Below are positions 3 to 53,779 of a DNA stretch of 58,729 nt, one piece after another. How positions within the stretch are numbered: position 1 is the stretch's first letter; every line of letters starts with the position of its first letter. Both the position numbers and the translations under genes were made by a program. The notes beneath the pieces are model-generated. The model had not been told where the DNA came from, did no database searches, and saw only the letters and a program-made list of their open reading frames with translations. Source of the DNA: a virus (taxonomy: Duplodnaviria; Caudoviricetes); the IMG/VR virus record IMGVR_UViG_3300035701_000035, positions 1-58,729 of that record, one strand, 5' to 3'.

Positions 3-200
3 AGGATAAAAAACATATTTACCATCTTTATCTGTTGTAAAATAAATACCCTTGCCGCTATTAGGTTTATTAAAATTAGATAAAAATTTTGCACCAAAAT
101 GATAAACAATATCTTTTACTTTACTATTAGGAAATATACTATCTAAATATTGAGAATAAGCTTGTAACGCTTGTTGTTTTTGTTGTGGGGTTATTTGGTT
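3..200 (-). other. Start of an ADP-ribosyltransferase-like (ART-PolyVal type) domain, truncated by the window
   Basis: ITPQQKQQALQAYSQYLDSIFPNSKVKDIVYHFGAK...SGKGIYFTTDK. VYH and GIYFT resemble the first two strands of the ART fold. Confidence 0.55.
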
Positions 201-21813: not shown

Positions 21814-21856
21814 AATCTATCTTTGTTGTAAAAATATTAAAATTTTTTAAGTTTAA

Positions 21857-21873
21857 TAAACTTATAAAGTTTA
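21857..21873. promoter_or_regulatory. 17-bp palindrome TAAACTT-N3-AAGTTTA (copy 1)
   Basis: taaacttataaagttta overlaps the stop of the 1143-aa gene, with an extra half-site at 21849-21855. The same palindrome recurs at 29545. Confidence 0.5.
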
Positions 21874-24800
21874 TAGTATAAATGGAAGCCATGAGTTTAT
21901 ATGAACATACCCATTATCATTATGTGTTGCACCTCCTTTTTTTACTTTTTTTGTTGCTCCATACATAGTATTAATAATATCAGAATTTTTACTATTACTT
22001 TTAAGTCCTTGAGATTTTGATCCACCATTTGCACAAGCTATTAGATCATCAGCACTCATATTTGGATTGTTTTCTTTACAGTCATCATATGCTGTTTGCC
22101 AAACAGTTTTACCACTACCAGCACCTTGACCTGTAACTGTTTTTGGAGTAGGTCTATATGCCATTTCTCCACCATTACCTGGAGTTACCTTATAGTTTTC
22201 ATACATTTGATTTAATGCATCTGTTCTCCATTTATTTGTAATTCCATTTGCATAATAATTTCTAACTTGATTTTTTAATGCTAATTTAGAATTATCAAAC
22301 TGTTGATTAGCAACTGTATTTTGATCATACATTCTTTGAGTAGTAGCCTGATTTAATAAACCATTTTGATTTCTAATATCATTTGCTTTTAACTCAAATT
22401 GATTTGCTATATTACTATTAGCATTATTATACTTAGCAAGTACATCAGCTGCATTCTTAGATGCTTGACCTTGTATACCTGCAGATCTTGAAGACAATCC
22501 TTGAGCTCCAGCAAATTGTGCTGCACCTTGAGTTTGTATGTTTGCTTGTTCTGAATTAGCAGCTAGTTCTCTTGTAGGATCTAAATAAGTAGGTCTTGGA
22601 GTTCCAAGATTTGCATATTGTCCATAAGGCATATATTTCTTAATACCCATTAGATCTGAAAATGCTCCAGTAGTTTTAATAGTATCTTGTAACCATGTTT
22701 GTGCACGACTACCTGGTACAGGATATTCTTGATCTTCTGTACATGGGCAACTACCATCTGGATTAACAGCTATCTCTATTTCAGTACCATCAGAGTTATG
22801 ACAAGGACATGTTTTTTTAGCATCTTCTTCTGTAAGTTCATCAGCAGGTATATCTTCATATACTAAGTTTCTTTTACCTACCATATATTTATGACCAGCT
22901 GTTGTATCACCATATGTAGTAGACTTTCCTGCACCATGTCCATACCAAGTATTATTAGTATAATCATAAGTATCATCTAAAGGAGAAATTTTATTACCAA
23001 TTGCACCATATAATTTTCCCATTGATGATTCATCGGCTGCTCCTGAATGTACAAGACTAACATTACCTAAGAAATTATCCATTGCATATTTTACATCAGG
23101 ATTATCATTATATGCACCTTTTTCATAATCTTGATATGCTTTTGCATATCCGTGCATTGTAGATTGTTGTAATACTCTGTCTCTTCCACTAGGATCTAAA
23201 GGAACACCAAGATTAGTTGACATTGCAGCTACTGTTGTAAAACCTTTATCATTCATACTTTTTATTGCAGCTGTAGCTTCAGGTAAAGTATATAGTTGAC
23301 CTGTTTTTGGATTTACATATTTTTTACTTATAACATCACTTGGTTTATCTAATCTATTACCTATATCAGAAAATAATTGTGGATCTACATCATTAGCTTC
23401 AAACATCAAGTTTCTTTTTTGATGCATTAAAGCTGCCTTTATAATTTCATCATCCTCTGGTAAATTACCATATTTAACAGACCATTTTCTATTTAGATCA
23501 GTAGTTGTTGCATTTTTACCTCTCCAAGCTTCAGGATTATCAACAATTTCTTTTGTATTTTTTATAATCTCAGCTCTAACAGTTGGATTTTCTAAATTAC
23601 TTTTAATTAACAAATATTGAGAAGCTGCAACTCTTCCTGATGCTGTATTAGGAAAACCTTCTAATCCATCATTTGCAATATCTTCTCCACTAGGAATTGT
23701 AAAACCAGAACTTTTTAATCTTTGAGTTGTAATTTTACCATCAGTACCTTTATGTTTTACATTAAGTTGTGGTTCTTTATAACCAGATGTTTTTGGATCT
23801 TTATTTGGATTTTTAGCTTTCCATTCTTCTAAGTGTTTTTGTTTTGCATTCCATATTGCTCTTTCTAATTCTTGATCAGTCATGTTAGAACCATCTACAA
23901 TTATACCAGTTTGAGCTTTTACCATACGTGTAATAGGACCTGATGCAGGAACTCTTTCAGATCTACCTTGATAGTTTTGAGACATACCAGCTCCCATAGA
24001 CATACCATACTCTGCTTGTGGTATATCAAAGAAAGGCATATCATAACCACCCATAGACATTCCATACTCTGCCATTGGAGGAGCTTGTTGTTGCATTTGT
24101 TGTTGTTGCATCATCATTGCTTCTTCTTCTGACATAGGTTGACCTTCTTGACCCATTTGTTCTTGTCCACCTCCTTGACCTTGTTGCATAACTTGTTGTA
24201 CAAGTCCAGTAGCTTCTTCTTGAGAAGCACCCAACTGAGTAAATACTTGTACTATCTCTTCAGGTTGAACACCATTTTCTAATAAACTCATAACAACTTC
24301 AGCAGGTTCAGCACCTCTTTGTAAAGCAGATTGAACTTCTTGTATAACTTGCATCATCTCATCTTCTCCACCACCTTGTTCTTGTGGTGCTCCTTGTTGT
24401 TGCTGTTGTTGCATCATTGCCATTTCTTCAGGAGATGGTTGTTGCATACCTTCTTGTGCTCTTCTTAGTCTTCTCATACCACCACCATACATCATCATCA
24501 TCTCTTCTTGAGACATCTGTGGTTGTTCTTGACTTTGTGCAACTGGTTGACCCTGATTCATTTCCTGAGCTTCTTCTTGTGGGTTTTGCTCATTCTCTGA
24601 TTCCATTGTCTCTTCTGAATTTTCCTGTTGTGACATTTGTTTTTTCAACTGGTCATTCAGTGTGCTGATTTCTTTAGCAGGTAGTATTTGTTCTTCAGTA
24701 ATACCACGTGCTTCCATACATGGTTTTGCTACAGCAGGTATACCTTGTGGGAATCCTTTCATTGACTCTTGTGCTAATGCAAGACATCCAAGTTTGATTA

Positions 24801-25302
24801 CATATTTTTTCATCATCAACTCAGCAGACTTTCTCTCTATTGCATCTGAGTCAGGATCTTCTAATATTTTTCTATACTTTTGAATATCATATTGTTTAGC
24901 AAGTTCTGCAGGAGTAAATGATTTGTTTGTACCACCTTTACCAAACATTGCAAGAACTTTAGGATCTTTAATCATCATACCTCTAGTATCACTAAAGATA
25001 AATGTATCTTCAGGAAGACTTAAAGGTACACCACCACTATGATGTCTTGGTCCTTTAATGATTTGATGTTCTGGTATTCCATCTCCATTTATGTCACCAT
25101 ATACAGTTTCACCTCCTTCTGCTTCTAAGTTAGCTTCTTCTCTAGGGACAGCAGTAATATACTTACTTTCTCTAAGTTTTGGCTTACCAATGTAAGCATT
25201 ATAATCTGCACCACCCATTGAAGGAACATCATTTACTAATGCACCTTGGACTTGATATCCTGTTCTTGCTTGTGGTAATTTTTTAATTCTAACTTTTATC
25301 AT
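21871..25302 (-). CDS. Modular virion cargo-like protein (1143 aa)
   Basis: EAEGGE...GPRHHSGGV region, Q/M/E-rich low-complexity tract, several AQxG and YGG motifs, C-terminal N/Q/A-rich coiled coil. Confidence 0.75.
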   Translation of the reverse strand: MIKVRIKKLPQARTGYQVQGALVNDVPSMGGADYNAYIGKPKLRESKYITAVPREEANLEAEGGETVYGDINGDGIPEHQIIKGPRHHSGGVPLSLPEDTFIFSDTRGMMIKDPKVLAMFGKGGTNKSFTPAELAKQYDIQKYRKILEDPDSDAIERKSAELMMKKYVIKLGCLALAQESMKGFPQGIPAVAKPCMEARGITEEQILPAKEISTLNDQLKKQMSQQENSEETMESENEQNPQEEAQEMNQGQPVAQSQEQPQMSQEEMMMMYGGGMRRLRRAQEGMQQPSPEEMAMMQQQQQQGAPQEQGGGEDEMMQVIQEVQSALQRGAEPAEVVMSLLENGVQPEEIVQVFTQLGASQEEATGLVQQVMQQGQGGGQEQMGQEGQPMSEEEAMMMQQQQMQQQAPPMAEYGMSMGGYDMPFFDIPQAEYGMSMGAGMSQNYQGRSERVPASGPITRMVKAQTGIIVDGSNMTDQELERAIWNAKQKHLEEWKAKNPNKDPKTSGYKEPQLNVKHKGTDGKITTQRLKSSGFTIPSGEDIANDGLEGFPNTASGRVAASQYLLIKSNLENPTVRAEIIKNTKEIVDNPEAWRGKNATTTDLNRKWSVKYGNLPEDDEIIKAALMHQKRNLMFEANDVDPQLFSDIGNRLDKPSDVISKKYVNPKTGQLYTLPEATAAIKSMNDKGFTTVAAMSTNLGVPLDPSGRDRVLQQSTMHGYAKAYQDYEKGAYNDNPDVKYAMDNFLGNVSLVHSGAADESSMGKLYGAIGNKISPLDDTYDYTNNTWYGHGAGKSTTYGDTTAGHKYMVGKRNLVYEDIPADELTEEDAKKTCPCHNSDGTEIEIAVNPDGSCPCTEDQEYPVPGSRAQTWLQDTIKTTGAFSDLMGIKKYMPYGQYANLGTPRPTYLDPTRELAANSEQANIQTQGAAQFAGAQGLSSRSAGIQGQASKNAADVLAKYNNANSNIANQFELKANDIRNQNGLLNQATTQRMYDQNTVANQQFDNSKLALKNQVRNYYANGITNKWRTDALNQMYENYKVTPGNGGEMAYRPTPKTVTGQGAGSGKTVWQTAYDDCKENNPNMSADDLIACANGGSKSQGLKSNSKNSDIINTMYGATKKVKKGGATHNDNGYVHINSWLPFIL
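23993..24072. repeat. 23-bp direct repeat encoding AEYGMSMG twice
   Basis: cccatagacataccatactctgc (23993-24015) and cccatagacattccatactctgc (24050-24072) differ by one base. Confidence 0.8.
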
Positions 25303-25310
25303 TGGTATAA

Positions 25311-28300
25311 TTATAAATATTCAACTTGTCCTCCTGCTGCTAGATACTGTTGTAGTTCATAGGGAGTCATTTCAACTTCATCATCTTCTTCATAGAATGG
25401 ATTAGCATATCCACCATCTTGCATATAACCTCCGTATCTTCCACGATTTGTGTTTGCTGAATTACCACTAGATGAAATACTGTTTTCATTAGAACCAGTA
25501 TTGTTATAATCATACAAACCTGTTTTAGAACCAAAATCTTGCCACCACCCTTTATTAGTGTTACTAGCCATACCTTGATTCTGCATTGGATCAACAGAAT
25601 TTAATGTGTTGTTATACTCCATTGGAGCTTGTTTCATTCTATTCCATGCACCTAATATACCATTACTAATTGCATTACCTGCAGCTAATGATGCTTCTGG
25701 ATCAACACCTATTACATTCTTACGTTTTCTTTTAATACCAACATATTGACTTTCTTGATTTCCAGAAACATCAGTTACGGGTTTACTATTTGGTTGAATA
25801 GGGCTATTTGTATAATTATAAGATTGCATACTTTCAGGTAGAGATGCTTCTTCAACATCTTCTGCACCAAAAAAGTTTTGCATATTATTTAAACTCATAC
25901 TATTAGCACTAGGATCAAAATCTACTTTTTTAGCTCCTGCTGGTGGTGTTTCTAATCCTATTTGAGCTCTATATAATTCTGGTATAGCAATATCTCCTCC
26001 ATAAGCATAATCAGTATAGTTTATTGGACCACCATATTCTTTTTCTTCTGTCCAATCTTTTTCTTCACCTCCAACATAGTCTCTAGAATTTATTTCTTGT
26101 TTTACTAATTGTCCTTTTCTATTTATACCTCTTCTTTCTTTTCCATCTTCTGATTTTTTAGTCTGCAAATATTCTCCTCTATTCATTGTACGTTGACCTT
26201 TACGGTGACTTAACATTTCTTGTAGTTTTCCTAAATCTTGCATAGGAACTCCATTACCGGCACCAGCACCATTTACATCATAAATATCAATCCATTTTTT
26301 ACGACCTCCTAATAAACCTTTTTTAGTAGTATAACTTGCTACAGGATTACCAGATACAAGACCATTATAAGATCTACCATCATTTAAATAGTATGGAGTA
26401 CCTTTTTGTTTAACCCATGAACCTTGTGATTGAACTAATGGATTCCAAGGCATTAAGTCTCTCCAACCACTTTGTGGTCTTACTTCTTTAGGAATGTAAT
26501 TTATTTTAGAATTTTGAATACATCTGTTGTAAGTTGCACTCCATGTAGTTCCAGGTCCACAGTTTGTTTGTGTAACAACATTACTTGAGCCAACATCATT
26601 ATAAGTATCTTGTAATGCTTGATCATAAAAATTTTGATAATCAATATAACCTTGTTCTTCATTATCATAATCAGTATCAAAGTTTCTATTTGGATTAGCA
26701 GCTTCCCAATCTTCTCTTTCCCCTTCTTTCCAGTCTTCCTTAGTCATCTTATCTTGCATACCTCTTCTATTTCCAGATTTGGTATTAACAGTTATACCAG
26801 TCTGAGCTTCTTCAAGACCATATTGTTGGTAATAGTCTTCATCATCTCCACCATAGATAAATTTAGTAAGTGGTTCTTCAGCATCCATATCAATGAATCC
26901 TCCAAATGCAGCTGTAGGATCTGTATTAGATGGTGATGTTTTAAATGCATCTTCAGCAAGATTTGGTTTATAACCATCTTGTGTTAATAAGTTTAAGATT
27001 TGTGGATTCCCTTGTGCATTTTTATATATTTCTTTTGATATAGCTGTATTAGAATTATTTTTTAAAGTATCAAAGAAAGAATTTTTTGTATTAGATATAT
27101 CATTAGTTAAAGTATCATCTCTTTTACCTTGTCCTGGAATACCTTCATTAGAAGGACCTCCATCTGCATACATGGATACCATTTTTTTAATAAACCTATT
27201 TTGAGCTGCACCACCTTTTTTGAATTCATCATCAGGATCTGAATAATTACCTTGATATAAAGTATCAGGTGTCTCTTGTAATAATGCAGGATCAATGGTT
27301 GGTTTTTCAATTTTATCAGGATCAAGAATTTTACTTGGACCTACATCAGTACCACATGGACAATTACCCATAATATCTGGAGCCATATAGTTTAATGCCA
27401 GAGGATCAGTACATTGACATGGATTTGCATATGCATCATATGTTTTATATCCTAAATAACCTAAACCTCCTCCAATTAAACTTGTTTTTAAACCGAGTCT
27501 ATATTTATAATTTATAGCATTTCTTATATCTGAACCATAAGAACCTTCATTAGCAGGGTTAAGTATATTAGGTCCTAAAGCACTATTTGCATAACCATAT
27601 GTTGGTAATGATATTTCATCAACATTTTTAGCAGATGTTCTAAATAATTGATTTAGACCAGTAGTTCCAAGTGTTTCTAAAGTTCTACCAATTTTACCTT
27701 TCCAACCTAGTTTATCAAAAGTATTAGGAGCTACATCAGATATTTCATTAAGTCTTCCTACACTCTTTCCTAACACACCATTAGTATTCCACATACCATT
27801 CATGTAATTAGGAAATGGTGTACCATACTTACCAGTTCTTCCATATATTGGATTTATATCAATTGGTAGATTACCATTAGGACTATCAAGATAATCATCA
27901 TAAAATTCTCCATCGAAATTTTTTGGAGGATAACTACCTTCATAACCTGTTCTAATATTCTTTAATTTATTAGTTTCTAATAATCCTTGATCAGTAGTTA
28001 AGTATTTACCAAATCTACTTGCAGTAGTACCCAATGGTCTATTTATATCATACTTAGTTTTAGCACCAGTTGTAAGAGGATTACCAAGTGGATCAAATAC
28101 TTTTAATTCACCTGTTGCAGGATCTTGATTATAATAAAATCTATTTTTAAATGTAACTTCTTTAGCTTTAGCAGGAGTTGTACCAAAAGGTAATGGTTGA
28201 TTTGGTCCAAATGTATGTTTTAATTCAAAAAAGTTATTACCTTCATCATCTGTACCACCAACAATTTTTGAATCTAATGGATATATTCCACTAACTAAAC

Positions 28301-29501
28301 CATCTTGTTCTGCAAGTGGTTCTATATCACCAAGAGAAAAATTATTATTCCCTTCAGTAAGTTTTAGAATAATATTTTTTACATCATCTTGATATAACAA
28401 TAATCTATCTGCTTGTAAACTACCATCAGTTCCACCAGCATAAGTTCCATTTTGACTAAATATTCCTGTTTTTGGAGTAGCACCATTAAGTACATTCCAT
28501 AATTCATTTCTATTCTGAGTAAATGATGTTGCAAGTTTAGGTGCAAATTTAGGTCCCACATATGGTATCTTAGTCATTGCATGTCCTATTGCTGAAAATC
28601 CTGGTACAGCTTTTCTTATTTTAGAAAAGTTAGTCATAGGAGTATTAATCTTTGGTATATACTTAATAAGTGCGTCATATGCCTTACCAATACCACTACC
28701 ACCTAACTGAGCTCTAGGTAAATAATCTTGAGGTTCAAATGAATCAGATGCACTTCTATAATCTCCTATATAAGATGCTAGATCTGGAAATGCTCCTTGG
28801 TTCTGCATACCTGGAGTAATAGCAATTAAATCTTCTATAGAGTAAGGTTTTGTAAAGTTAGGGTTTCCTGGATTATCAAATTGACCCATTACAGCTTCTT
28901 CTCTTCCTAACTGTTGATTTGGATCTTGATCTTCATAATCATATCCTTGTTCTTCTCCACCATCTGCAAAATAACCACCATATCTAAATGCTTGTTCTTG
29001 CTCATCTTGTTCATTCTCTAGATGAGAAGTATCATTATTAAGAGCTTCTTCATCATCATAGTATCCCTGATCTGACATTGCAAGTTGTTCTTGTTCAGCA
29101 TCTGATGCTGCTCTTTCTGCATCTTCATTTGATTGTTGTTGTGGATCTTGTTGTGGATCTTGTGCTTCTTGTGGTTGACCAGACTCATTTCCTTCTATTA
29201 AATCTGGATCTTCATAACCTTCTTCAGCAAGTTTTGAAAGTGCAGATTTAATAAGCATCACAGATGTATTTTCATCTAATGCATACTCATTAATAAGTTG
29301 GTTATATATAAGATCTGGAGTAGCATCATTTTTTAATGAGATATAAACATCCTCATATATTTGATTTATTCTAGCTGGATCCATACTAGGAGAGGATACT
29401 TCCATACCCATTGCTGCTTTTTTCAAAAACTTTGCAGTTTTGTTATAGTACCCTGGAGTCTCTCCTGGAAGTGCTTTTCTTATCCTTACTTGTTTTTTCA
29501 T
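25311..29501 (-). CDS. Modular virion cargo-like protein (1396 aa)
   Basis: Acidic/Q-rich N-terminus, many xxGG and AQxG motifs, one hydrophobic segment (SLIGGGLGYLGY), small Cys motifs. Confidence 0.75.
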   Translation of the reverse strand: MKKQVRIRKALPGETPGYYNKTAKFLKKAAMGMEVSSPSMDPARINQIYEDVYISLKNDATPDLIYNQLINEYALDENTSVMLIKSALSKLAEEGYEDPDLIEGNESGQPQEAQDPQQDPQQQSNEDAERAASDAEQEQLAMSDQGYYDDEEALNNDTSHLENEQDEQEQAFRYGGYFADGGEEQGYDYEDQDPNQQLGREEAVMGQFDNPGNPNFTKPYSIEDLIAITPGMQNQGAFPDLASYIGDYRSASDSFEPQDYLPRAQLGGSGIGKAYDALIKYIPKINTPMTNFSKIRKAVPGFSAIGHAMTKIPYVGPKFAPKLATSFTQNRNELWNVLNGATPKTGIFSQNGTYAGGTDGSLQADRLLLYQDDVKNIILKLTEGNNNFSLGDIEPLAEQDGLVSGIYPLDSKIVGGTDDEGNNFFELKHTFGPNQPLPFGTTPAKAKEVTFKNRFYYNQDPATGELKVFDPLGNPLTTGAKTKYDINRPLGTTASRFGKYLTTDQGLLETNKLKNIRTGYEGSYPPKNFDGEFYDDYLDSPNGNLPIDINPIYGRTGKYGTPFPNYMNGMWNTNGVLGKSVGRLNEISDVAPNTFDKLGWKGKIGRTLETLGTTGLNQLFRTSAKNVDEISLPTYGYANSALGPNILNPANEGSYGSDIRNAINYKYRLGLKTSLIGGGLGYLGYKTYDAYANPCQCTDPLALNYMAPDIMGNCPCGTDVGPSKILDPDKIEKPTIDPALLQETPDTLYQGNYSDPDDEFKKGGAAQNRFIKKMVSMYADGGPSNEGIPGQGKRDDTLTNDISNTKNSFFDTLKNNSNTAISKEIYKNAQGNPQILNLLTQDGYKPNLAEDAFKTSPSNTDPTAAFGGFIDMDAEEPLTKFIYGGDDEDYYQQYGLEEAQTGITVNTKSGNRRGMQDKMTKEDWKEGEREDWEAANPNRNFDTDYDNEEQGYIDYQNFYDQALQDTYNDVGSSNVVTQTNCGPGTTWSATYNRCIQNSKINYIPKEVRPQSGWRDLMPWNPLVQSQGSWVKQKGTPYYLNDGRSYNGLVSGNPVASYTTKKGLLGGRKKWIDIYDVNGAGAGNGVPMQDLGKLQEMLSHRKGQRTMNRGEYLQTKKSEDGKERRGINRKGQLVKQEINSRDYVGGEEKDWTEEKEYGGPINYTDYAYGGDIAIPELYRAQIGLETPPAGAKKVDFDPSANSMSLNNMQNFFGAEDVEEASLPESMQSYNYTNSPIQPNSKPVTDVSGNQESQYVGIKRKRKNVIGVDPEASLAAGNAISNGILGAWNRMKQAPMEYNNTLNSVDPMQNQGMASNTNKGWWQDFGSKTGLYDYNNTGSNENSISSSGNSANTNRGRYGGYMQDGGYANPFYEEDDEVEMTPYELQQYLAAGGQVEYL

Positions 29502-29518
29502 AACATATTATATATATA

Positions 29519-29529
29519 AATATACTAAA
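29519..29529 (-). promoter_or_regulatory. Candidate late-promoter box TTTAGTATATT
   Basis: Identical 11-mer at 46132-46142, variants at 48483-48492 and 52516-52537; always intergenic, just upstream of a start codon. Confidence 0.5.
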
Positions 29530-29544
29530 TTTTAATTTAATGCA

Positions 29545-29561
29545 TAAACTTTAAAAGTTTA
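29545..29561. promoter_or_regulatory. 17-bp palindrome TAAACTT-N3-AAGTTTA (copy 2)
   Basis: taaactttaaaagttta overlaps the stop of the 1529-aa gene, 15 nt upstream of the GTATATT box. Confidence 0.5.
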
Positions 29562-32500
29562 ATGATCTTCAATGATATATCCATCTTTAACATACTCATC
29601 AATTTCTTTTTTTGATAGACGAGTTACAACTCCACCTTTTTTATTTTTATAACCAGGTGTATCACTTATTTGTTTATATGCATTACCTCCTGTAAATGGA
29701 ATTGATATGTCCCTATTCCATTTATCAAATGTTTGTTTATTCATTTTTTTAACAATCTGTTGTCTCCATTTTTCAAGTTGTTCTGGTTTAGCATTTTGTA
29801 TATCTTCTATTTTTAAATCAAGACCTGCTCTCATTTCCATTACAACATGTAGAGCTGGAGCAGTAGAAAAATAATCATTTTTTTGTGCGTTTAACAATTC
29901 CTGATAAGTATTTGGTAATCTATCTTCAGTATTATTTATAGTTTTTAAATTCCTACGATTTAACATTTGATTATTATCTAAGTTTGTAGTATGAGATATG
30001 TTATCATATAAATTTCTACCTTTTTCATCTGGAGTTGTCTTTTTCATAAGATCAATAAGTTCAGGATCATAAAACTTTTGTTTAAAGTTTTGTATACTTG
30101 AATTAGGAAATAAATTAGAAAATAATTGATCTCTTTCATATGTACCACGTAAAGTTCTAAACAAAGCCGTTGCAGGATCTTCAGGATACATTTTATCAAA
30201 GGTAGCTCTATTATCTAAATATTCAAGTTGTTTATTACCTAAATCAGACAACTCATCTATTGTATAAAAATCACTTTCACCTAACATTTTTTGAGGATCT
30301 GATGCCATATTCATCATAGCATTTCTTGCTGCCCATCCATCTGAAAAATCTTTAAATTTAAAATCACCTACTCCTTTAAATAAATCTGGACCATGTTCTG
30401 GAATATTTAATAAATAATTTTTAAGAGAATTACCTGCATCTATTAAACCTTCTTCTTTCCAATTTGTATCATAATCAGCAGGATCAATATTATACCATTC
30501 TTCACCACGATGAGGGTCATCACCATATTTTATTGCTGAATTTCCACCTGGACTATTTCTATATTTTGTTAAATCAACTTTAGGAACATCAGTTTTTATA
30601 ACTGGACTTTTTGGTTTAGACATACTCCTCATAATTGGAGTTATACCAGGTAAAATATCATCTACATTATGTAAACTGTTTATTGTATTTCTAAATGCAT
30701 TGGTTGGTTTTAACAGTTTACCAATAGATTCCAAACCATATTGAGCTTTAGGAAGTTCTCCTCCTTTGTTAAATTTTGGTTCAGCAGAACCATATACTTT
30801 TCTAGTAAAATCAAAGTTTCCTGTTTTTAATCTTTGTAACTCCTCATTTTGTTTTTTACTTGCAAAATTATCTTGTTGTTTAATTTGTCTAATTAAATCT
30901 TTATAAAACTTTTTATGTTTAGGTGGAAGTAAATAACTAGTATATGTATCTATAAGTTGTGTATACTGATCAGGATTTTTAATTTCATGTTCAAACATAT
31001 TTGTTTTTCCAAGACCAGTGTTTGATGCTTCTTCAACATAAGCTCTAAGTATATCATTTTCTTTATTTTTTGTTATGCTTGTTAGAAAATCACCATCTTG
31101 ATTAGTTTCATATATAAACTTCTTAGGTTTTCCAATTTGTTTTTCTAAATCAAATCCTACAGTATTATTTACTACTGGCATTGTTTGCCCTACAACAGGT
31201 ACATTAAAGTTTGCAATTCGTGCAGATTGAGCAACAGGAATGATATTAGTAAAATCATCTGCACCAAATAAAGAAAGTTGATTAGAAATAGTTTTTGCTT
31301 CTGGTACTATTGGTTTTAATTCTTGTAAAGCTTTAATTACTTGACCTACACCACCACCTCCTTGTAATCTTTGAAGAGCACCTCCATTTTTTCTATTAAA
31401 TTTAGTTGGTAGTCTACCAATTGAATGATTGTGTCGTTGTGTATTAAGTCCTGGATTTTGTTTTAATACAGAAAATTCTCCAAAACCTAAACCTTTACCT
31501 AACTTATTTAAAGGATTAGTTATAGATTCAAAAACAGGTTCTGCTGTATGTAAACCAGGATGACCTAGTGCAATACCAGAACCTGGAGTTGCAGCATCAT
31601 AAAGTCCTGTATATTGAGTATTAAAATTAGGATTACTTAATACAGTACCAGGTTTACGTAAAGCATTTAAACTTTTAAATGTATTAAGTGCAGGCTTTGT
31701 ACCCCAATAAGCAAATAAAGCATTTAATGCAGCAGATCCATAATTTCCTGCTTGAAACTCATCCTTAACATCTTTAATATTTTCTGGTACTTCTAGTAAA
31801 AGACCAGAAGTCATTAATGGATTATCAAAACCTGAAAGAATAGTTCCTAAACCTTTTTTTAAACCAATAGTATTTTTAACTCCTGAACCAAGTAAATTAT
31901 TTCCTGCAGCCATTCTATTAGCATACTTAAGATTACCTAATGCATTAAAACCTTTACCTAATCCATATGATGTACCCATATCTACTAACTCATGACCAAG
32001 AGCATTTGTAAGATTTCCTTGATCATAACCTCTTCTTAAATTCATTCCAATTTTAAATGGATTAAATGCTTGTAGTGGTGTAAAATTTCTTAATATTGAA
32101 AGAGGATTATCATTACCCATTACACCCAGATCAACACCTTTTTCTTTTTGAATACCAAGTTTAGTGTCATAACTTAAATTACTATCTCCCCACATTTCTT
32201 CTTTAGGGTTTGCTGCAAAATATAAAGCATCTAATGGATATTTAAGTACATCTCTAAGTTTGTTACCTGAAGTATTTTCATTAATACCATTCCAATTTTT
32301 GATATTCTCTTTGTTATGCTTTTTTGCCATACCAAATGATGTATTTGCTACATCATTATATAAATCACTATAAGTTTGTGTTTTACCATTTACTTTTTCA
32401 TCTGACTCTAACTCTAATAGTGTTTTATAAATTCTTTCAGGATGATTTTGTACTGTATTTAATATATCAAGTTTACCTGCTTGAGTAGTTCCTGCTTTAG

Positions 32501-34148
32501 TTAATGCTTGGTTTATAAAGTATTTTAAGTCATTTGCAGATAAATTAGAAATATATTTACCTGCTGCATCATTAAACTCTTTTAACTCTCCTTCTTTTCT
32601 AGCTTCTTGAGCACCTACTTCATAGTCTACACGTTTTTTTGCTGCTACTTGTGATCTCATATCTGCAAACTGATCATCTATATTTGCATATGTATAGTTT
32701 GGATCGTAATTATTTTTTGGATCTTTTTTATATTTATTATATTCTTTATCTCCTCTTTCATATTTATTTTTAATATAACCAAGATATTCTTCAGGATTTG
32801 TCATACTAGTTTTGTTCTTTTCAAAAGCAGATACTGGATCATCTGACAAAAATGTATTATCATCTAGCCAACTACTTTTAGTTGGTCCTGATAAACTATT
32901 AACTAACTCCTCTTGTACTTGAGCATATACATCATCAATAATTTTTTTAGTAGGTTCTGCAAACTTAGTTTTTAAACCAGTTTTAGTTCCTACTTTAGGA
33001 GAAAGTTCTGAAATAACTTGGTCTGTAGTTTTTCCTTCATTAACTGCTTTTTTAACTACACTTTGAGTTACCTCACTTGTATAGTTTTCCATAGCACCTT
33101 TCATAAGAGGTCCCATTTGTTCTTCAACTTGTTTACGATCTAATCCCCAAGTGTTTACAAACTGATCTGCTTGAAATCCATTTTTTAAAATTCTATTACG
33201 TACAATATCTAGTGGATATAAATCAGTAAATCCTCTATCATTTTTAATCACAAGATATTTATTTTTTAACTGATTTTCAAGAGATTCCATTAAAGGTTGT
33301 CCATCTTCACCTAATACGGGATTACCTTCTCCATCTATTACAGGAGTTTTACTATCTGTCACATGTGTTGGTAAAGATTGAAATGGTTTTATTTTATCTC
33401 CTTTTTTAGATTTATTAAAAGTTTCATAATATGTCTTGGCACTTTCATCATAGTCATTACTCCTTCTTTTACTGTCTTCTATTCTTGCTTCTTCTCGTCT
33501 AAGATTATAATCTTCTTGTTTTTTTTGTTTAGTATAATCTTCTTGAGCTATTTCTTCTTGATTAATAAGTTGAAAAGCTTCTTCAGTAATACATTGTCCT
33601 TTATATGGAATCTTACCTTCACCACATACTAAAGGCTCTCCTGTCTCAGTAAAAGGTGCATGATAATCTGGAATAAATTGTTCAGGTATTTTAATAGTTT
33701 TTTCTTCTCTTTGATTACCTGCATATGGAAGACCTAACTTTTTTTCTAAACTGTATCTATATGCATTTTCTGCAATTGGATTTCTTAAATAATTACGAGA
33801 CTTGTATGTAAAGTCATGTTCAGGAATAGTTTCCCCTTGTGTCCAATTATTTATTTGACTAAATGTATTAGCTTCTTCTGGTGTTCTTGGTCTACTATAG
33901 TCTTGTGCACCTATGTCATAAGTAGGAACTTGTTCTACTGTAGGAAGATCTTGAGAATTAAAATTATATCCAAAATTATTTTGTACTCCTGTCATAGGTT
34001 CATTAACAACAGGTGCAGTTTTTTCAATATCCCGTGGATGTAATCTTGGATAAACAAAATTTCTTATATTATTACTTAGTTTTTTTAATCCACCACGTTG
34101 TGCCTTTGGTAATGATTGTGGAATACTTGTTATTCTATATTTTGCCAT
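29559..34148 (-). CDS. Modular virion cargo-like protein (1529 aa)
   Basis: Segments bounded by LPKAQRGG, RKNGGALQRLQGGG, NKGGELPKAQYG and KKGG; no catalytic motif recognised. Confidence 0.75.
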   Translation of the reverse strand: MAKYRITSIPQSLPKAQRGGLKKLSNNIRNFVYPRLHPRDIEKTAPVVNEPMTGVQNNFGYNFNSQDLPTVEQVPTYDIGAQDYSRPRTPEEANTFSQINNWTQGETIPEHDFTYKSRNYLRNPIAENAYRYSLEKKLGLPYAGNQREEKTIKIPEQFIPDYHAPFTETGEPLVCGEGKIPYKGQCITEEAFQLINQEEIAQEDYTKQKKQEDYNLRREEARIEDSKRRSNDYDESAKTYYETFNKSKKGDKIKPFQSLPTHVTDSKTPVIDGEGNPVLGEDGQPLMESLENQLKNKYLVIKNDRGFTDLYPLDIVRNRILKNGFQADQFVNTWGLDRKQVEEQMGPLMKGAMENYTSEVTQSVVKKAVNEGKTTDQVISELSPKVGTKTGLKTKFAEPTKKIIDDVYAQVQEELVNSLSGPTKSSWLDDNTFLSDDPVSAFEKNKTSMTNPEEYLGYIKNKYERGDKEYNKYKKDPKNNYDPNYTYANIDDQFADMRSQVAAKKRVDYEVGAQEARKEGELKEFNDAAGKYISNLSANDLKYFINQALTKAGTTQAGKLDILNTVQNHPERIYKTLLELESDEKVNGKTQTYSDLYNDVANTSFGMAKKHNKENIKNWNGINENTSGNKLRDVLKYPLDALYFAANPKEEMWGDSNLSYDTKLGIQKEKGVDLGVMGNDNPLSILRNFTPLQAFNPFKIGMNLRRGYDQGNLTNALGHELVDMGTSYGLGKGFNALGNLKYANRMAAGNNLLGSGVKNTIGLKKGLGTILSGFDNPLMTSGLLLEVPENIKDVKDEFQAGNYGSAALNALFAYWGTKPALNTFKSLNALRKPGTVLSNPNFNTQYTGLYDAATPGSGIALGHPGLHTAEPVFESITNPLNKLGKGLGFGEFSVLKQNPGLNTQRHNHSIGRLPTKFNRKNGGALQRLQGGGGVGQVIKALQELKPIVPEAKTISNQLSLFGADDFTNIIPVAQSARIANFNVPVVGQTMPVVNNTVGFDLEKQIGKPKKFIYETNQDGDFLTSITKNKENDILRAYVEEASNTGLGKTNMFEHEIKNPDQYTQLIDTYTSYLLPPKHKKFYKDLIRQIKQQDNFASKKQNEELQRLKTGNFDFTRKVYGSAEPKFNKGGELPKAQYGLESIGKLLKPTNAFRNTINSLHNVDDILPGITPIMRSMSKPKSPVIKTDVPKVDLTKYRNSPGGNSAIKYGDDPHRGEEWYNIDPADYDTNWKEEGLIDAGNSLKNYLLNIPEHGPDLFKGVGDFKFKDFSDGWAARNAMMNMASDPQKMLGESDFYTIDELSDLGNKQLEYLDNRATFDKMYPEDPATALFRTLRGTYERDQLFSNLFPNSSIQNFKQKFYDPELIDLMKKTTPDEKGRNLYDNISHTTNLDNNQMLNRRNLKTINNTEDRLPNTYQELLNAQKNDYFSTAPALHVVMEMRAGLDLKIEDIQNAKPEQLEKWRQQIVKKMNKQTFDKWNRDISIPFTGGNAYKQISDTPGYKNKKGGVVTRLSKKEIDEYVKDGYIIEDH

Positions 34149-34150
34149 GA

Positions 34151-37100
34151 CTAAATTATTTCAAATGTATAACCTAATTTTTCTAATTTTCTTTTAGTAG
34201 CTTCATCTATTTCATCTCCTAATTCATATTCCATTTCTCCACCTTTTTCCCATTGCTTAATAGTTTTAAAAGTTTTAGGATCTACTAGAAAATTGTTTTC
34301 AATATTAAACGGCTTACCTCCTATTAAACCAAGAGCTTCTACATTTTGTAATGGTTTAAAAAAAGTTTCTCCTAAATAATATTTAGCAGCATCACTTTGA
34401 TTTATTATTCCTGAACTTCTTTTTTCCCATGGATGTAAATCCCAAACATCATTAGCTTGCCAATGCATACCTTCTGGTGTATCTTTCATATCCCATCTAT
34501 AACCACCTCTAACACCATAAGTATCATTGTCATAAATTGAATGTATAAAGTCAGATTTAGGACTTGATTGAACATGATATGTTTGTTGCCATGGTTTATG
34601 ATATTCAGTCTCTTTTTTTGTTAAAGGATGTTTTGATAAATCATAATGTTGTTTTGATAAATTAATTAATTGATCTTTTATATCATCATACTTTTGATCT
34701 TTAAGACCATGAAATATTATATCATTATTTCTTTCAGAGAAAAAATCTGGAGTATGCTCAATACCTAACATTTTATAAGTATTCTCACCTGTTTGTTCTA
34801 ATGTATTATACTCTTGTTGTTGACCTAAACCAACAGCCCATGCATCTAATCTTCTTTGTCCAATATCTTCTAACGTTTTCATAAGAAGAGGGTCATATGC
34901 ATCAAGAGCACCCATTTTATCTTTTGTAGAAAGTTTATTCCATGAAGCTTTAGATGTATTTAATTGAGTAAGTAACTGATCTAATAATTCATTTCTAGGT
35001 CCATATCTTAAACTCATACCAGTTCTAAATGGTCTATTAGAATTATTAACTGTATTATTATATAACTCTCCAGGCATTTCAGTAATTTTATCTTTGATAT
35101 GATAACTAGCAGGATTAATTCCTTTATATGCAAGTAATCTCAATAAATCACCTTCATTATAATTAACAATATTTTTTATTATATTCTTACCTGCAACTTG
35201 TAAACCTGTTTGAGCTTTAACTAGTTCTCCTCCTTGTTCTGCTTTAACAATATTAGAATTTTGATTTGGTTTTTTTTCAACAAAATCATTAAATAATCTA
35301 AGTTTATCTTTTGTTTCATAAGGAAGCATTAAATCTATAAGTTGAGGTGCTATGTCAGAATCTCTAAAATTCATTGATTCTTGCAATTTTTTAAGATGTT
35401 CTTCTGTAAAGTTTTCATTAACAGGATCATACAACCCTTTGCTTTCTAAATATTTTCTTGCTACATCTACTCTTGCTTTTTGTTCATCAGGATTTTCTAG
35501 ATAAGGTTTATTAGTTACCATTATATCTTCAATCAATTTATTAAATTGATCTTTTGGTGGTGTTTCATAAGGTTTAAACTTAATAGGATCTGCAAATATT
35601 TTATCTACACTACCCATTACTGAAGCATGTGATAATTCATGTGTTCTTGTCCATGGATTATCTGTATTTAAATATACACTATGTTTATCTTTATTAAAAT
35701 CATTTAATATTTCATCAAATTGTTCAGAATAATATTTTTTTTCCTTTTTATTTAAAGATGTGTTATTGACAGAATCATAATATGGTTTAAATAATTCTGA
35801 TTCTTTGGATAGTGGAGGGGAATAAAAACCTTTAGCTTTTAGTTCTTCAAATGAAATTTGATCTTTAGGTAACACACCAATATCATTAATCTTTACAGTT
35901 TCAATATTGTTTAATATTTGCTGTCTGTAAGCTTCAGCTTCTTCACCAACTTGGTCAATAGGTTTACCTACCATACGTGCATATCTCTCTTTAAAAAGAG
36001 GACTGTTAGCCATTCTTATTAAGTAATCTTTATCTGTATCTGTAACAGTTTGTTCTCCACCTTCTTGTGCTTTATCTAATTCAGGTACTGAAATATCTTC
36101 TATAATATAACCTCCTTTAGCATACTCTTGTATTTCTTCTGGACTAAGTTTTGCATTAATAAAACCTGGAGCAACATCTTTATAATGTTCTGCAAAATAT
36201 CGTGCATCTTCATCTGAATCAAATCTCATTGCTTCTCTAGAAGAAGGATCATAGTCTCCTAATACTAACTGACCATTTTCATCTTGTATTTGTGGTACAG
36301 CATAGTTATCCATACTTGCCATATAATGAGTACCCGTATCACCATTATCAAACTGATATGGATTGTCTGGTAAATTAATCATTCTTTTAGCAGCAGGATT
36401 ACCAAACTCATTAGCATATGCAAGTTTGGATTTCATCATTGCATTTGTATAGTCTTGCAAATGCTCAGGAAGAGGTATATTATATTCTCCTTCTTCATTA
36501 TGTGAATCAATTACGGCTTGACCTTCAGGAGTATTTTCTCTCCAATCTCTATATGCATTAAGTTTATCTTGTAATGAATAATAGTCATTCATTGTCCAGT
36601 CAGTTGGGTTTCCTATTTGACCTTCTATACCTCTAATTTCTTGTTCCCATTTTTCTGGAGAAGAAGCTCCCCCATCTTGATAGTACTTTGCATGAGGATC
36701 ATAAATCTTATTCTTTCTAGATGAAGGTTTTTCAAATAAATAATTCTCAGCAAAGAATTTATTAGTAGCATCAAGACTTCTTGAATATGATCTAGAGTTT
36801 TTATTTTTTGTTTTATGTACTCCTCCTTTTTTAAATGTAATAGGATTAGTTTGTGTTAAAATAAATGGTTTACCAAAGGCATCCATCAACTGAGTTTGTT
36901 TTTGTCTAAATTTATCAGACATATTCCATTTAGGATCATAGTTTTTAGGAAAAAATCCCCATGAATCTCTTGTAGTTAATTGAAATTCATTTTGAGCAGT
37001 TCTTTGTAAAAGCCCCATATGACCTGCTACATTATCTATTGGATTTACAGGACTATATTCAAAACTAAATAATGGGGGTGGTTTTGATGTGTCAGGTTGT

Positions 37101-38362
37101 ATATCAAAAGGAATTGTTTCTTTACCATATGAATCAAATAGTTTATGAAAATTTTCTTTTGTTTCATCAGCATCATAATCTTGCCAAGTATATTTCAAAA
37201 AATTTTTAGATAAAGCATGATCACGTATTTTTATATTAGGGTAGTCATAGTCTGAGTGAGGATAAGATTTATTAAAACGATGATACATCAAGTCTCTTGC
37301 ACTTAATGGTTCTTCATTTTGAACTTGAGAGTTCATTAAATAAGCTTTTAATGGTCCATACTCATTTATTAAAGCTTCTAGTCCAGCATCACTATCAAAA
37401 TCATAATCAGTAGGTTCAAATCCAGTATCTATTCCTCTAAAATAATTTGCTATTAAATCTCTTTTACCAAAACCATACATATTTTTTGAAGCCGCTGTTG
37501 TATTACCATCTCCAAAATATTTTGCTTTATAATCTTTTTTAAATAAAGAATCTATTATATCTTGTTTACTTCTATATGGCATAGCATTTAATCTAGCAAT
37601 TCTTTCACCTGCTAGTTTAACAGGATATGTAAGTAGATTATTTGAACGAGTACCTTGTTTTACTAAACTAGCAAGCCATCTATCACCAGGACCTCCTCCT
37701 TTTTTAAAAGATTGTTTTTCTAAATCTATAGGAATTTCTCTTATAACACTAGCTCCTGGAATCTTATGTAAACCAGTATTTTTTTGTACATTTTTTGTAA
37801 CACCATTATTTGCTACTAACTGTAAATCATATACTATATTGTCTGTATCAATAGTATCAGTATCTATATTAATATATGGAAGATTTTTATATGGTGAATA
37901 AGTTCTATAACCATCTTTCTGTGGAGTCATTCCTCCATTTCTCATAAAGTCTTCAGGTTGTTCTAACTCTGGTTGTAATCTATAATTAGTAGTAATTTCA
38001 GTACCAGCAGGTAAATCTTTTGCAGCTACTAAGTATCTTTTATTTCCTTGAGATATATTTACTGCTGTAGGATTATTTTCTGAATGATTATGATTTTTAC
38101 CTACTATTGGAGTAGCTTGATTATTAATATGTGCTAAACCAATTACGTCTCCTTTTCTAATTGGTTCATTAATAAATAAACCATTACCTTGTATATTAGA
38201 TTTTTTTACACTTAGTTGTTTATCTACTGAAGATCCACCTTGTTTCATAGATGACATTTGTGTAGGATTATTTAAACCCACAACTACATCTTTCTTCTGA
38301 GTAGGAGCTTTTGCACTTCCTAACTTCTTAAGAGATTCTATAAGTACTTTTTTATTATACAT
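34151..38362 (-). CDS. Modular cargo-like protein (1403 aa) with SET domain and zincin metallopeptidase domain
   Basis: SET motifs GNGLF, NHNHS, AAKDLPAGTEITTNY; zincin motif THELSH...NPDEQKAR; two related DxW..P...GKPF domains. Confidence 0.85.
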   Translation of the reverse strand: MYNKKVLIESLKKLGSAKAPTQKKDVVVGLNNPTQMSSMKQGGSSVDKQLSVKKSNIQGNGLFINEPIRKGDVIGLAHINNQATPIVGKNHNHSENNPTAVNISQGNKRYLVAAKDLPAGTEITTNYRLQPELEQPEDFMRNGGMTPQKDGYRTYSPYKNLPYINIDTDTIDTDNIVYDLQLVANNGVTKNVQKNTGLHKIPGASVIREIPIDLEKQSFKKGGGPGDRWLASLVKQGTRSNNLLTYPVKLAGERIARLNAMPYRSKQDIIDSLFKKDYKAKYFGDGNTTAASKNMYGFGKRDLIANYFRGIDTGFEPTDYDFDSDAGLEALINEYGPLKAYLMNSQVQNEEPLSARDLMYHRFNKSYPHSDYDYPNIKIRDHALSKNFLKYTWQDYDADETKENFHKLFDSYGKETIPFDIQPDTSKPPPLFSFEYSPVNPIDNVAGHMGLLQRTAQNEFQLTTRDSWGFFPKNYDPKWNMSDKFRQKQTQLMDAFGKPFILTQTNPITFKKGGVHKTKNKNSRSYSRSLDATNKFFAENYLFEKPSSRKNKIYDPHAKYYQDGGASSPEKWEQEIRGIEGQIGNPTDWTMNDYYSLQDKLNAYRDWRENTPEGQAVIDSHNEEGEYNIPLPEHLQDYTNAMMKSKLAYANEFGNPAAKRMINLPDNPYQFDNGDTGTHYMASMDNYAVPQIQDENGQLVLGDYDPSSREAMRFDSDEDARYFAEHYKDVAPGFINAKLSPEEIQEYAKGGYIIEDISVPELDKAQEGGEQTVTDTDKDYLIRMANSPLFKERYARMVGKPIDQVGEEAEAYRQQILNNIETVKINDIGVLPKDQISFEELKAKGFYSPPLSKESELFKPYYDSVNNTSLNKKEKKYYSEQFDEILNDFNKDKHSVYLNTDNPWTRTHELSHASVMGSVDKIFADPIKFKPYETPPKDQFNKLIEDIMVTNKPYLENPDEQKARVDVARKYLESKGLYDPVNENFTEEHLKKLQESMNFRDSDIAPQLIDLMLPYETKDKLRLFNDFVEKKPNQNSNIVKAEQGGELVKAQTGLQVAGKNIIKNIVNYNEGDLLRLLAYKGINPASYHIKDKITEMPGELYNNTVNNSNRPFRTGMSLRYGPRNELLDQLLTQLNTSKASWNKLSTKDKMGALDAYDPLLMKTLEDIGQRRLDAWAVGLGQQQEYNTLEQTGENTYKMLGIEHTPDFFSERNNDIIFHGLKDQKYDDIKDQLINLSKQHYDLSKHPLTKKETEYHKPWQQTYHVQSSPKSDFIHSIYDNDTYGVRGGYRWDMKDTPEGMHWQANDVWDLHPWEKRSSGIINQSDAAKYYLGETFFKPLQNVEALGLIGGKPFNIENNFLVDPKTFKTIKQWEKGGEMEYELGDEIDEATKRKLEKLGYTFEII
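35230..36075 (-). other. Zincin-like metallopeptidase module
   Basis: HELSH at 35627-35641 followed by YLENPDEQKAR (candidate third ligand Glu). Confidence 0.7.
37945..38215 (-). other. Minimal SET-domain lysine methyltransferase
   Basis: LSVKKSNIQGNGLFINEPIRKGDVI...KNHNHSENNPTA...LVAAKDLPAGTEITTNY contains GxGLF, NHS and ExxxxY motifs in canonical order. Confidence 0.88.
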
Positions 38363-46142: not shown

Positions 46143-46170
46143 AATAAATGACATTTACAAATATACACAT

Positions 46171-46201
46171 AAAACAAAACCCCCACAAGTGTGAGGGCTT
46201 T
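46171..46201 (-). terminator. Intrinsic terminator
   Basis: Transcript reads AAAGCCCTCAC-ACTT-GTGGGGGTTTT-GTTTT (stem with G-U pairs, then a U tract). Confidence 0.8.
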
Positions 46202-53284: not shown

Positions 53285-53779
53285 TTATTTCTTTTTACGT
53301 GCATTCTTCTTTGCACCAGCAATTCTATCAGCAGCAGTTGCTTTGTTAAATGGAGGAGCTAATGCAGCAAACTTAGTTGCTTTAGTTGCACCACCTACTT
53401 TCATTTTAGTTTTTACAGGTCCACCTTTAGCTTTAACTCGTGTAGGAGGAATTGTATCAGAATAAAGATTAGTTTTACTTGTATTAAAAGTTGGACTAGA
53501 TCTAACTCGTTCTATATTATCTTTTTTTAGCAATTCTGGAACAGGACTATATCCTCCTATTGTAGGCATTTTTCCTATACCCATTTTATTTGCTAGATTA
53601 ATATCATTATTATAACGCTCATCTATTCTTTCAGTATCTTCTTCACTTAATGGACCTTGTGTTGTGTTAGTAACTATACCATTTTGAGCTTTTTTTAAAG
53701 ATGACATAACAGTCTTTGTTCTAGTTTCAAAATTCTTTCTGAATGTAGTTATCGGATTTTCTTTAGTAGTCTTTTTCAT
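53285..53779 (-). CDS. Small basic protein (164 aa) with KAQNG, KAKGG and KVGG motifs
   Basis: ORF track; Lys-rich termini; tight operon spacing. Confidence 0.8.
   Translation of the reverse strand: MKKTTKENPITTFRKNFETRTKTVMSSLKKAQNGIVTNTTQGPLSEEDTERIDERYNNDINLANKMGIGKMPTIGGYSPVPELLKKDNIERVRSSPTFNTSKTNLYSDTIPPTRVKAKGGPVKTKMKVGGATKATKFAALAPPFNKATAADRIAGAKKNARKKK

Follow-up and report, generated by a model that had tools for sequence, protein, structure and literature searches.

How several very large proteins are stored in a phage particle and passed in order through a narrow tail is an open question for podovirus-like phages, and it is raised by four neighbouring genes of the virus record IMGVR_UViG_3300035701_000035. 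This linear record, estimated to be about 48% complete, was analysed over its whole length of 58,729 bases (the window), and all of its large genes lie on the minus strand. One of them, at 38362..43842 (-), encodes a muzzle protein of 1826 amino acids (aa) that matches the Pfam family crAss_MUZ (E 1.6e-20; 73.4 bits, cut-off 27) and a PHROG of virion structural proteins; this match, together with a capsid-protein PHROG match at 57762-58718, identifies the window as a crAss-like phage. The muzzle gene is followed immediately by four cargo-type genes, which precede giant RNA-polymerase-type genes and are all on the minus strand: gene 1 (1403 aa; 34151..38362), gene 2 (1529 aa; 29559..34148), gene 3 (1396 aa; 25311..29501) and gene 4 (1143 aa; 21871..25302), which sum to 5471 aa. 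Their position suggests that they are crassvirus cargo (ejection) proteins occupying the C1/C2 place. The original prediction held that an acidic module at the end of one protein pairs with a basic peptide at the start of the next. We find that the junctions between these genes carry a genuine and previously undescribed cassette, whose two elements sit only at these junctions, are under protein-level selection and are absent together where the genes are fused. Head-to-tail docking of the proteins is the best single reading of this pattern, plausible though short of probable.

Two elements at three gene junctions

The junctions are named J1 (1403 to 1529), J2 (1529 to 1396) and J3 (1396 to 1143). 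At each of them the upstream protein ends with a module of about 25 residues (the C-module): gene 1 with ..GGEMEYELGDEIDEATKRKLEKLGYTFEII and a stop (J1, 34154..34255, -; E 4.7e-10), gene 2 with ..KKGGVVTRLSKKEIDEYVKDGYIIEDH and a stop (J2, 29565..29651, -; E 2.3e-12), and gene 3 with ..EEDDEVEMTPYELQQYLAAGGQVEYL and a stop (J3, 25314..25427, -; E 1.8e-14; alignment A4). These E values come from a profile of 54 terminal C-module copies (A7), which over the whole record matches four places only, the three C-termini and one internal copy in gene 1 (..KLSPEEIQEYAKGGYIIEDI; 36092..36166, -; E 3.3e-9), with E values from 2e-14 to 3e-9. An earlier hidden Markov model (HMM) of 34 distinct terminal modules was scanned against the window and 14 related loci. 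True matches scored at least 15.7 bits (24.9 bits for the internal copy) and were confined to the coding strand of genes 1-3, whereas noise reached at most 3.7 bits on either strand. The peptides that the original prediction quoted for the three ends are exact, as are the starts MAKYRITSI, MKKQVRIRK and MIKVRIKKL that it quoted for the genes that follow.

These starts belong to the second element, a basic N-terminal peptide (the N-peptide). A profile of 51 N-peptide copies (A11) matches the starts of gene 2 (MAKYRITSIPQSLPKAQRGG; J1, 34086..34148, -; E 2.9e-6), gene 3 (MKKQVRIRKALPGETPGYYNKTAK..; J2, 29430..29501, -; E 1.8e-7) and gene 4 (MIKVRIKKLPQARTGYQVQG..; J3, 25237..25302, -; E 1.3e-12; alignment A5), and over the record it finds these three N-termini only, apart from an internal LVKAQTG that it matches weakly and in part (35186-35224; E 0.03). 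In the N-peptide M-x-K-x-[VY]-[RK]-I-x-[KST] is followed by [LIV]-P-x-A-x-x-G and, at J2, by a further NKTAKFLKKAQ.G; V4, A12 and G15 are invariant in 25/25 sequences of A5. The C-module consists of GG, 3-12 residues, a short hydrophobic stretch, L/M-S/T-x-x-E, about ten helical residues, G, and Y/G-x-[IVF]-E-x-x, in which L/M-S/T-x-x-E looks like a helix cap. It is acidic, and thus opposite in charge to the N-peptide, and has three class-specific subtypes, LGDE.DEATM..L.KLGYTFE.I, LS..EID.Y.K.GYI.E. and YMT.EE...F.A.GG..EY[LI]. The ends of the gene series differ from its junctions: the N-terminus of the first protein (MYNKKVLI...) and the C-terminus of the last (GG..GYVHINSWLPFIL and a stop) are matched by neither profile, and the 1068-, 2470- and >3729-aa proteins carry neither element.

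No Pfam family covers the termini of the cargo-type proteins at E <= 0.01, and no described docking-domain family was found there. A HeH/SAP-like or SHOCT-like nature of the module was considered and rejected, as the module is too short or has its parts in the wrong order, and it gave no Pfam match.

The internal C-module of gene 1, also claimed in the original prediction, is real and is kept in the gene 1 homologues of L001, L008, L013, L015, L027, L031 and L042. Its DNA likeness to the end of gene 2 is real too but modest, with 75% mean column identity in a two-sequence alignment and matches mostly across about 55 nucleotides (nt). The segment that follows the internal module in cis (SVPELDKAQEGG; 36053..36088, -) resembles the second half of the J1 N-peptide (SIPQSLPKAQRGG). 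When IIEDI-SVPELDKAQEGG is set alongside TFEII, stop, MAKYRIT-SIPQSLPKAQRGG, J1 looks like the internal connector with a stop, a start and MAKYRIT put in. After internal modules the same chain continues with S-[IV]-P-x-L or an acidic linker, then ..Q-x-G-G; a K-x-V-R-I-x-K strand was never seen there, either after the internal copies of the HMM scan or in four long library proteins. Two short motifs, [FYM]-x-x-G-G and h-P-[KR]-A-Q-x-G, are repeated many times through genes 1-4 (21871-38362, -). Both also occur in a 164-aa protein (53285-53779, -; ..SLKKAQNGIV.., ..KMKVGGATK..), and XXGG-type motifs are visible in the phi14:2 cargo proteins g069 and g070.

Relatives in IMG/VR were reached through gene 2 (one), gene 4 (13) and an alignment of the 1068-aa protein (80 retained out of 125). 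Junctions were read directly in 30 records including the window, three pairs of which are near-duplicates; in 50 further records both profiles were run and the matches were paired manually by coordinates. Wherever a protein ends in the C-module, the next gene starts M-x-K-x-[VY]-[RK]-I-x-K; this holds for 155 junctions in 80 records (71 in the read records and 84 in the profile-paired ones), and none of the 80 records has a terminal module without a following N-peptide gene. In one apparent exception, G017, which has a module and no N-peptide match, MKKKVRVYKPGG is present just under the profile threshold. At J3 both elements are found in 29/30 read records, the remaining one (L057) being a fusion, while among the 50 further records 43 are paired at J3, four have a fused open reading frame (ORF) and three are too short; the 50 hold 41 other paired junctions. 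At J2 both elements occur in 27/30 read records, neither occurs in L040 and L045, and L063 has the N-peptide alone. J1 has both elements in 15 read records, eight have no such junction (three-gene relatives, in which gene 1 leads straight to J2) and seven were left unjudged. The three-gene relatives retain J2 and J3, and the pairing thus persists with a different number of genes.

In L005 and L009 gene 3 is split into two ORFs (9100-10010) with the J3 module on a small separate ORF, and in L008 and L010 gene 2 is frameshifted (4600-5170) with both J2 elements present. The C-module is intact in the distal piece of each of these genes, and the splits and frameshifts could be assembly errors or real.

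The termini are far more conserved than the protein bodies. The best segment between gene 2 and its L001 homologue has 34% identity, yet the last 20 residues are nearly unchanged, and the good alignment in A4 is confined to the last ~21 columns. Third codon positions vary beneath the conserved junction residues (GGA/GGT/GGG, TAT/TAC, GAA/GAG), and therefore selection acts on the peptides. The J2 spacer (29502..29558, -; 57 nt) is also highly conserved, with a length of 57-59 nt in 14/14 aligned relatives, and many invariant columns of alignment A3 fall within it. It has a dyad (AAACTTTTAAAGTTT) directly 3' of the stop and a box (AAATTTAGTATATT) about 20 nt ahead of the ATG. The box was rejected as a repeated promoter motif (6 matches at <=2 mismatches vs 6.4 expected, no enrichment). 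Read-through at J2 was rejected as well: the spacer is in frame in the window, yet it is 58 or 59 nt long in several relatives. A second 57-nt spacer, after gene 4 (21814-21870, -), opens with the same stop-overlapping dyad as the spacer after gene 2 (29502-29558, -), namely TAAACTTTTAAAGTTTAT for gene 2 and TAAACTTTATAAGTTTAT for gene 4; the J2 spacer may serve as a small hairpin, as a protein site, or as a promoter or terminator of the phage.

By their muzzle homologue the nearest cultured phages are phi4:1, phi17:2 and the FpV group, and no module/N-peptide pair was found in the phi14:2 cargo genes or in Fpv2 gp31-gp33. In tblastn searches of GenBank phages genes 2 and 4 had no match and gene 1 only a short one to phi14:2 g070 plus one fecal contig; a scan of viral contigs with gene 1 gave no relative. 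Searching 1.84 billion cluster representatives with the A7 profile returned 1081 proteins at E <= 0.001, of which 151 had E <= 1e-10; two to four stretches were matched in most of the proteins.

Docking weighed against other readings

In the docking reading, the C-module and the N-peptide would each contribute one half of a conserved cassette at the gene junctions of the cargo (ejection) proteins that follow the muzzle gene in this uncultured crAss-like clade. Within proteins the same connector would join domains, running through GG, a short strand, a capped helix, a G-Y-I-I-E-D strand, S-x-P-x-L and (K)AQxG(G); where one gene ends and the next begins, it would be divided between two polypeptides. 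The downstream M-x-K-x-V-R-I-x-K strand would then bind the upstream terminal module non-covalently, aided by the opposite charge, and the separate proteins would form one thread from gene 1 to 2 to 3 to 4, packed and then expelled in a set order, N-terminus first, by way of portal and tail. We infer from sequence both the mutual contact of the elements and its setting of the packing or ejection order. More tentatively, the cargo might form a non-covalent 'polyprotein thread', in which cognate pairs chain the proteins, the last link is anchored near the portal through a domain of gene 4, and gene order is at once chain order and ejection order. By analogy, and just as tentatively, such a thread would be a split version of the single C1 thread of crAss001, that is, a docking code for the injected proteome.

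An AlphaFold2 model of gene 4 residues 1-215 (alignment A9, 25 rows) has a mean predicted local distance difference test score (pLDDT) of 78 and predicts a folded domain at about residues 45-210 (24673..25170, -), directly after the N-peptide, with blocks of 84-94 over residues 51-200. Residues 1-5 and 7-38 have a pLDDT below 50 despite including the invariant positions; an N-peptide that is conserved yet predicted to be unstructured fits the usual picture of a segment that folds on binding to a partner. In BFVD the gene 4 domain matches a phi4:1 structural protein (E 6e-5) and, weakly, crAss proteins named 'Cargo protein 1 compact domain' (five of the 16 best rows, E 0.14-0.42). Against the PDB, Foldseek found nothing at E <= 0.001, the wide VIA-align search gave generic helical hairpins only (best Z 5.7), and no solved chain was matched in PDB sequence searches. 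If this domain is the C1 compact domain, gene 4 would correspond to the part of C1 that binds the portal, the upstream proteins would supply the long N-terminal part (from the portal into the tail in crAss001), and the fused proteins of L047, L048 and L057 would resemble the crAss001 arrangement. A J3 complex prediction (gene 4 residues 1-130 with A5, and the last 70 residues of gene 3 with A4) gave ipSAE (interaction prediction score from aligned errors) values of 0.15 and 0.13 against a mark of 0.32, which, without controls, speaks neither for nor against binding. The AlphaFold2 model of gene 1 residues 640-800 (A10, 11 rows; mean pLDDT 43) is too poor to use, with no more than a low-confidence strand and helix at the internal module.

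Fused genes are consistent with docking. Genes 3 and 4 form one ORF in five records, three of them read (L057, L047, L048) and two known by coordinates only (G016, G020), and the KVRIKK strand and the module are both absent from the fused genes. In L057 the fused protein has 1475 aa and its fusion point lacks both the module and MIKVRIKKLPQARTGYQV; in L047, L048, G016 and G020 a single ORF of 1712-1865 aa replaces genes 3 and 4, with no J3 elements. Similarly, the library protein P0015 combines gene 1 of the L015 type with the C-terminal half of gene 2 of that type, without the J1 module and without MAKYRIT, and the terminal module of gene 2 is now internal.

Other observations weigh against docking. 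The N-peptide is kept without an upstream terminal C-module in 10 records (nine of the 50 further records and L063), with about five types of upstream tail: GG-DLSKLNKFIH and a stop in L029/G004, G005 and G010; GG-NVNKLQKFIK and a stop in L047; GG-FPKNIGKLKKFTR and a stop in L048, G016 and G020; an end ..DLGYVPGQ in L058 and L063; and an end ..MTGKYQ in L089. In L058, L063 and L089 an extra domain is appended after the now-internal module. The N-peptide therefore has a function independent of the neighbouring module. Related short tails occur in L040 (GG-VIKIRKSKLNKFKH and a stop) and L045 (GG-DVPKLLRFTR and a stop), where the next gene lacks the strand. The joint loss in the fusions, in L040 and in L045 can each be explained by one deletion or replacement, and because the fused forms look related (..IFPT.MGG), the independent events may number one to three only. 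Moreover, gene order is fixed, and the constant pairing of module class and peptide class is therefore not independent evidence for a code. In every phage the modules outnumber the N-peptides because internal copies have no partner in trans, and both elements could bind a third component rather than each other. The co-occurrence of the two termini in relatives, on which the original prediction was to stand or fall, thus holds in one direction: a terminal module is always followed by an N-peptide, and the converse fails in 10 records. The prediction is partly supported: the one-way adjacency, the joint absence in fusions and the conserved unstructured N-peptide speak for it, and N-peptides kept without a module and a joint loss that may be a single deletion speak against it.

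Two features of these tails are recorded in their own right. The short, basic type, GG-x(1-3)..K[LI]xKF.[HKR] before the stop, takes the place of the acidic module upstream of gene 3 (L029:3840-3879, L047:190-230, L048:4270-4311, L040 ~2980-3029, L045 ~4080-4118), has a spacer of 35-37 nt in the three measured (L029, L047, L048) and resembles the NKTAKFLKK part of the J2 N-peptide. A domain with ..GYKNGKWYPH.SVEGG.KTI.YGHKL.., which looks like a phage lysozyme or muramidase, lies in the protein upstream of gene 3 at approximately L045:1-400, L058:3400-3900, L063:2700-3200 and L089:1100-1500.

It is possible, if doubtful, that the junctions are fission points in a recurrent inter-domain connector and involve no binding, genes being cut or joined where a break is tolerated; the module would be kept as a hinge or fold-capping unit, and the N-peptide as start-site context or as a leader that enters the portal channel first. 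Survival of the N-peptide without an adjoining terminal module fits this account, and so does the occurrence of the same module internally or terminally in close relatives, the end of L015 gene 2 being nearly identical to an internal module of P0015. Among the best 50 of the 1081 library matches, the best stretch is internal in 25 and lies <=3 residues from the C-terminus in 25. Domains are also gained and lost between connectors: the internal and terminal modules of gene 1 are 32 residues apart in L015 vs about 610 in the window. What fission leaves unexplained is that K-x-V-R-I-x-K is restricted to N-termini with another cargo gene ahead of them (gene 1, the 1068-aa protein and the larger downstream proteins lack it), that the strand is dropped in fusions, and that the stop has a constant position right after E-Y-L in A4.

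The alternative named in the original prediction, in which C-modules, N-peptides or both are targeting signals for a receptor common to all, whether portal, capsid inner face, scaffold or packaged DNA, and load the cargo into the procapsid, appears unlikely. A common receptor would agree with the recognition of all modules by one profile and of all N-peptides by another, and with N-peptides kept whatever the upstream tail; in crAss001, according to the available text of PMC10172136, the portal is bound by 12 copies of a C1 domain. A single receptor would, however, predict convergence on one form, and the three module subtypes are kept apart over deep divergence. Nor do the cargo proteins share a single terminal consensus, the module being on genes 1-3 only and the N-peptide on genes 2-4 only; other downstream virion proteins lack both signals and the fused proteins manage without them.

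We consider it very improbable that [FYM]-x-x-G-G marks processing sites cleaved by a phage or host protease, with the modules as removable propeptides. Gly-Gly cleavage of polyproteins occurs in adenovirus and African swine fever virus. Here, GG stands 3-12 residues ahead of each module, the motif recurs through genes 1-4 and their relatives and at many other domain boundaries, and HExxH motifs occur in the proteins of genes 1 and 2, both in the window and in relatives. This motif is short and common, however, no protease family was found in the window proteins with Pfam and PHROGs, and 'proteolytic' appears 0 times in the available text of the crAss001 virion paper (PMC10172136). Conservation of the junctions for translational coupling or as a regulatory RNA or DNA element, to which the strikingly conserved J2 spacer, the same dyad after two stop codons and the J1 and J3 gaps of merely 2 and 8 nt might point, is hardly tenable and already largely refuted by the codon pattern, given synonymous third-position changes beneath conserved residues, conservative amino-acid replacements between classes and internal module copies far from gene boundaries.

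Other features of the record

The genes run in the order muzzle, 1403, 1529, 1396, 1143, 1068, 2470 and >3729 aa, which is also the order in phi14:2 and agrees with the crAss001 gene order described in the available text of PMC10172136. No Pfam or PHROG family accounts for the four cargo-type proteins, except that the first 154 residues of the 1403-aa protein (37900-38362, -) match the SET domain in Pfam (E 6.9e-6; 26.9 bits, cut-off 22.4). This region may be an injected protein methyltransferase; a stretch similar to it sits mid-protein in the L001 homologue of gene 1. Residues 883-997 of the same protein (~35370-35715, -) resemble the phi14:2 tail protein g070 (33.6% identity, E 3e-4) and include an HExxH motif (HELSH). 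HExxH is also present in gene 1 or gene 2 proteins of L038, L040, L050, L057, L066 and L077, and the Pfam and PHROG scan of the window proteins found no peptidase family.

Residues 230-430 of the 1143-aa protein (~24000-24620, -) form a Q/E/M/P-rich low-complexity region with repeated MMMQQQQ and QEEA, which is kept in relatives. The 2470-aa (11189-18601, -) and >3729-aa (3-11189, -) proteins are weakly alike along some 500 residues (21% identity, E 3e-4), which could reflect an old duplication or compositional bias. After a 262-aa gene, at 46165-46200 (-), a GC-rich hairpin is followed by a T run (..GCCCTCACACTTGTGGGGGTTTTGTTTT) and resembles an intrinsic terminator; after it comes TTTTTAGTATATT, three bases ahead of the next ATG.

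Relation to known systems and meaning for cargo ejection

Docking domains of nonribosomal peptide synthetases and polyketide synthases (NRPS/PKS) are short and class-specific; one lies at the very C-terminus of a subunit, the other at the N-terminus of the subunit that follows. As in these systems, the elements of the window are at facing termini in gene order, and a plain linker takes their place when subunits are fused. There is no relation in sequence or fold (no Pfam match), the proteins here are virion cargo and not enzymes passing intermediates, the window module also occurs inside proteins, and its binding to the N-peptide is a prediction. Docking of the NRPS/PKS type would also lead one to expect that neither element is ever kept alone, against which stand the 10 records that have the N-peptide without the module. 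In chaperone-usher pili an unstructured N-terminal strand completes the fold of the previous subunit and thereby builds a head-to-tail chain; unlike in donor-strand complementation, the module of the window has about 25-30 residues and is not an Ig-like domain. Encapsulin cargo-loading peptides and the T4 capsid-targeting sequence are short terminal peptides that select cargo for an HK97-type shell. They bind shell or scaffold, have one consensus per system and are unpaired across junctions, in which the window elements differ.

In T7-like podoviruses the ejection proteins of the internal core or pre-ejectosome, gp14, gp15 and gp16, come from consecutive genes, are stored in order on the portal and exit before the DNA. 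The core of T7 consists of stacked oligomeric rings, which are not known to depend on terminal peptide pairs for their cohesion, and no homology to it was found. A T7-like internal core is mentioned in the available text of PMC10172136. There, C1 of crAss001 (gp45) is described as a single chain whose compact domain binds the portal inside the capsid, and which extends from this domain through the portal as far as the tail barrel and probably exits N-terminus first; ejection order is expected to depend on cargo packing and cargo interactions (Bayfield 2023; PMC10172136). Like C1, the cargo genes of the window stand directly after the muzzle gene, and the gene 4 domain weakly matches C1 compact domain proteins. 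In crAss001 this is one 90.8-kDa chain, whereas four proteins of 5471 aa in total would here need non-covalent linkage.

Among the titles and abstracts listed by full-text searches, we found no description of such junction elements in crassviruses or other phages, and a 2026 paper on phage N4 states, in its available text, that crassvirus ejection proteins are still to be resolved (PMC13434306). By analogy, the pattern would work like NRPS/PKS docking and the donor-strand chaining of pili, outside any described family. As a feature of a large protein family (1081 cluster representatives) that is not in Pfam, the module is of use when the cargo genes of crAss-like metagenomic genomes are annotated. 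If the docking reading is true, a terminal pairing code would provide a concrete mechanism for the ordered passage of very large proteins through the tail, and the order of the chain would be predictable from sequence.

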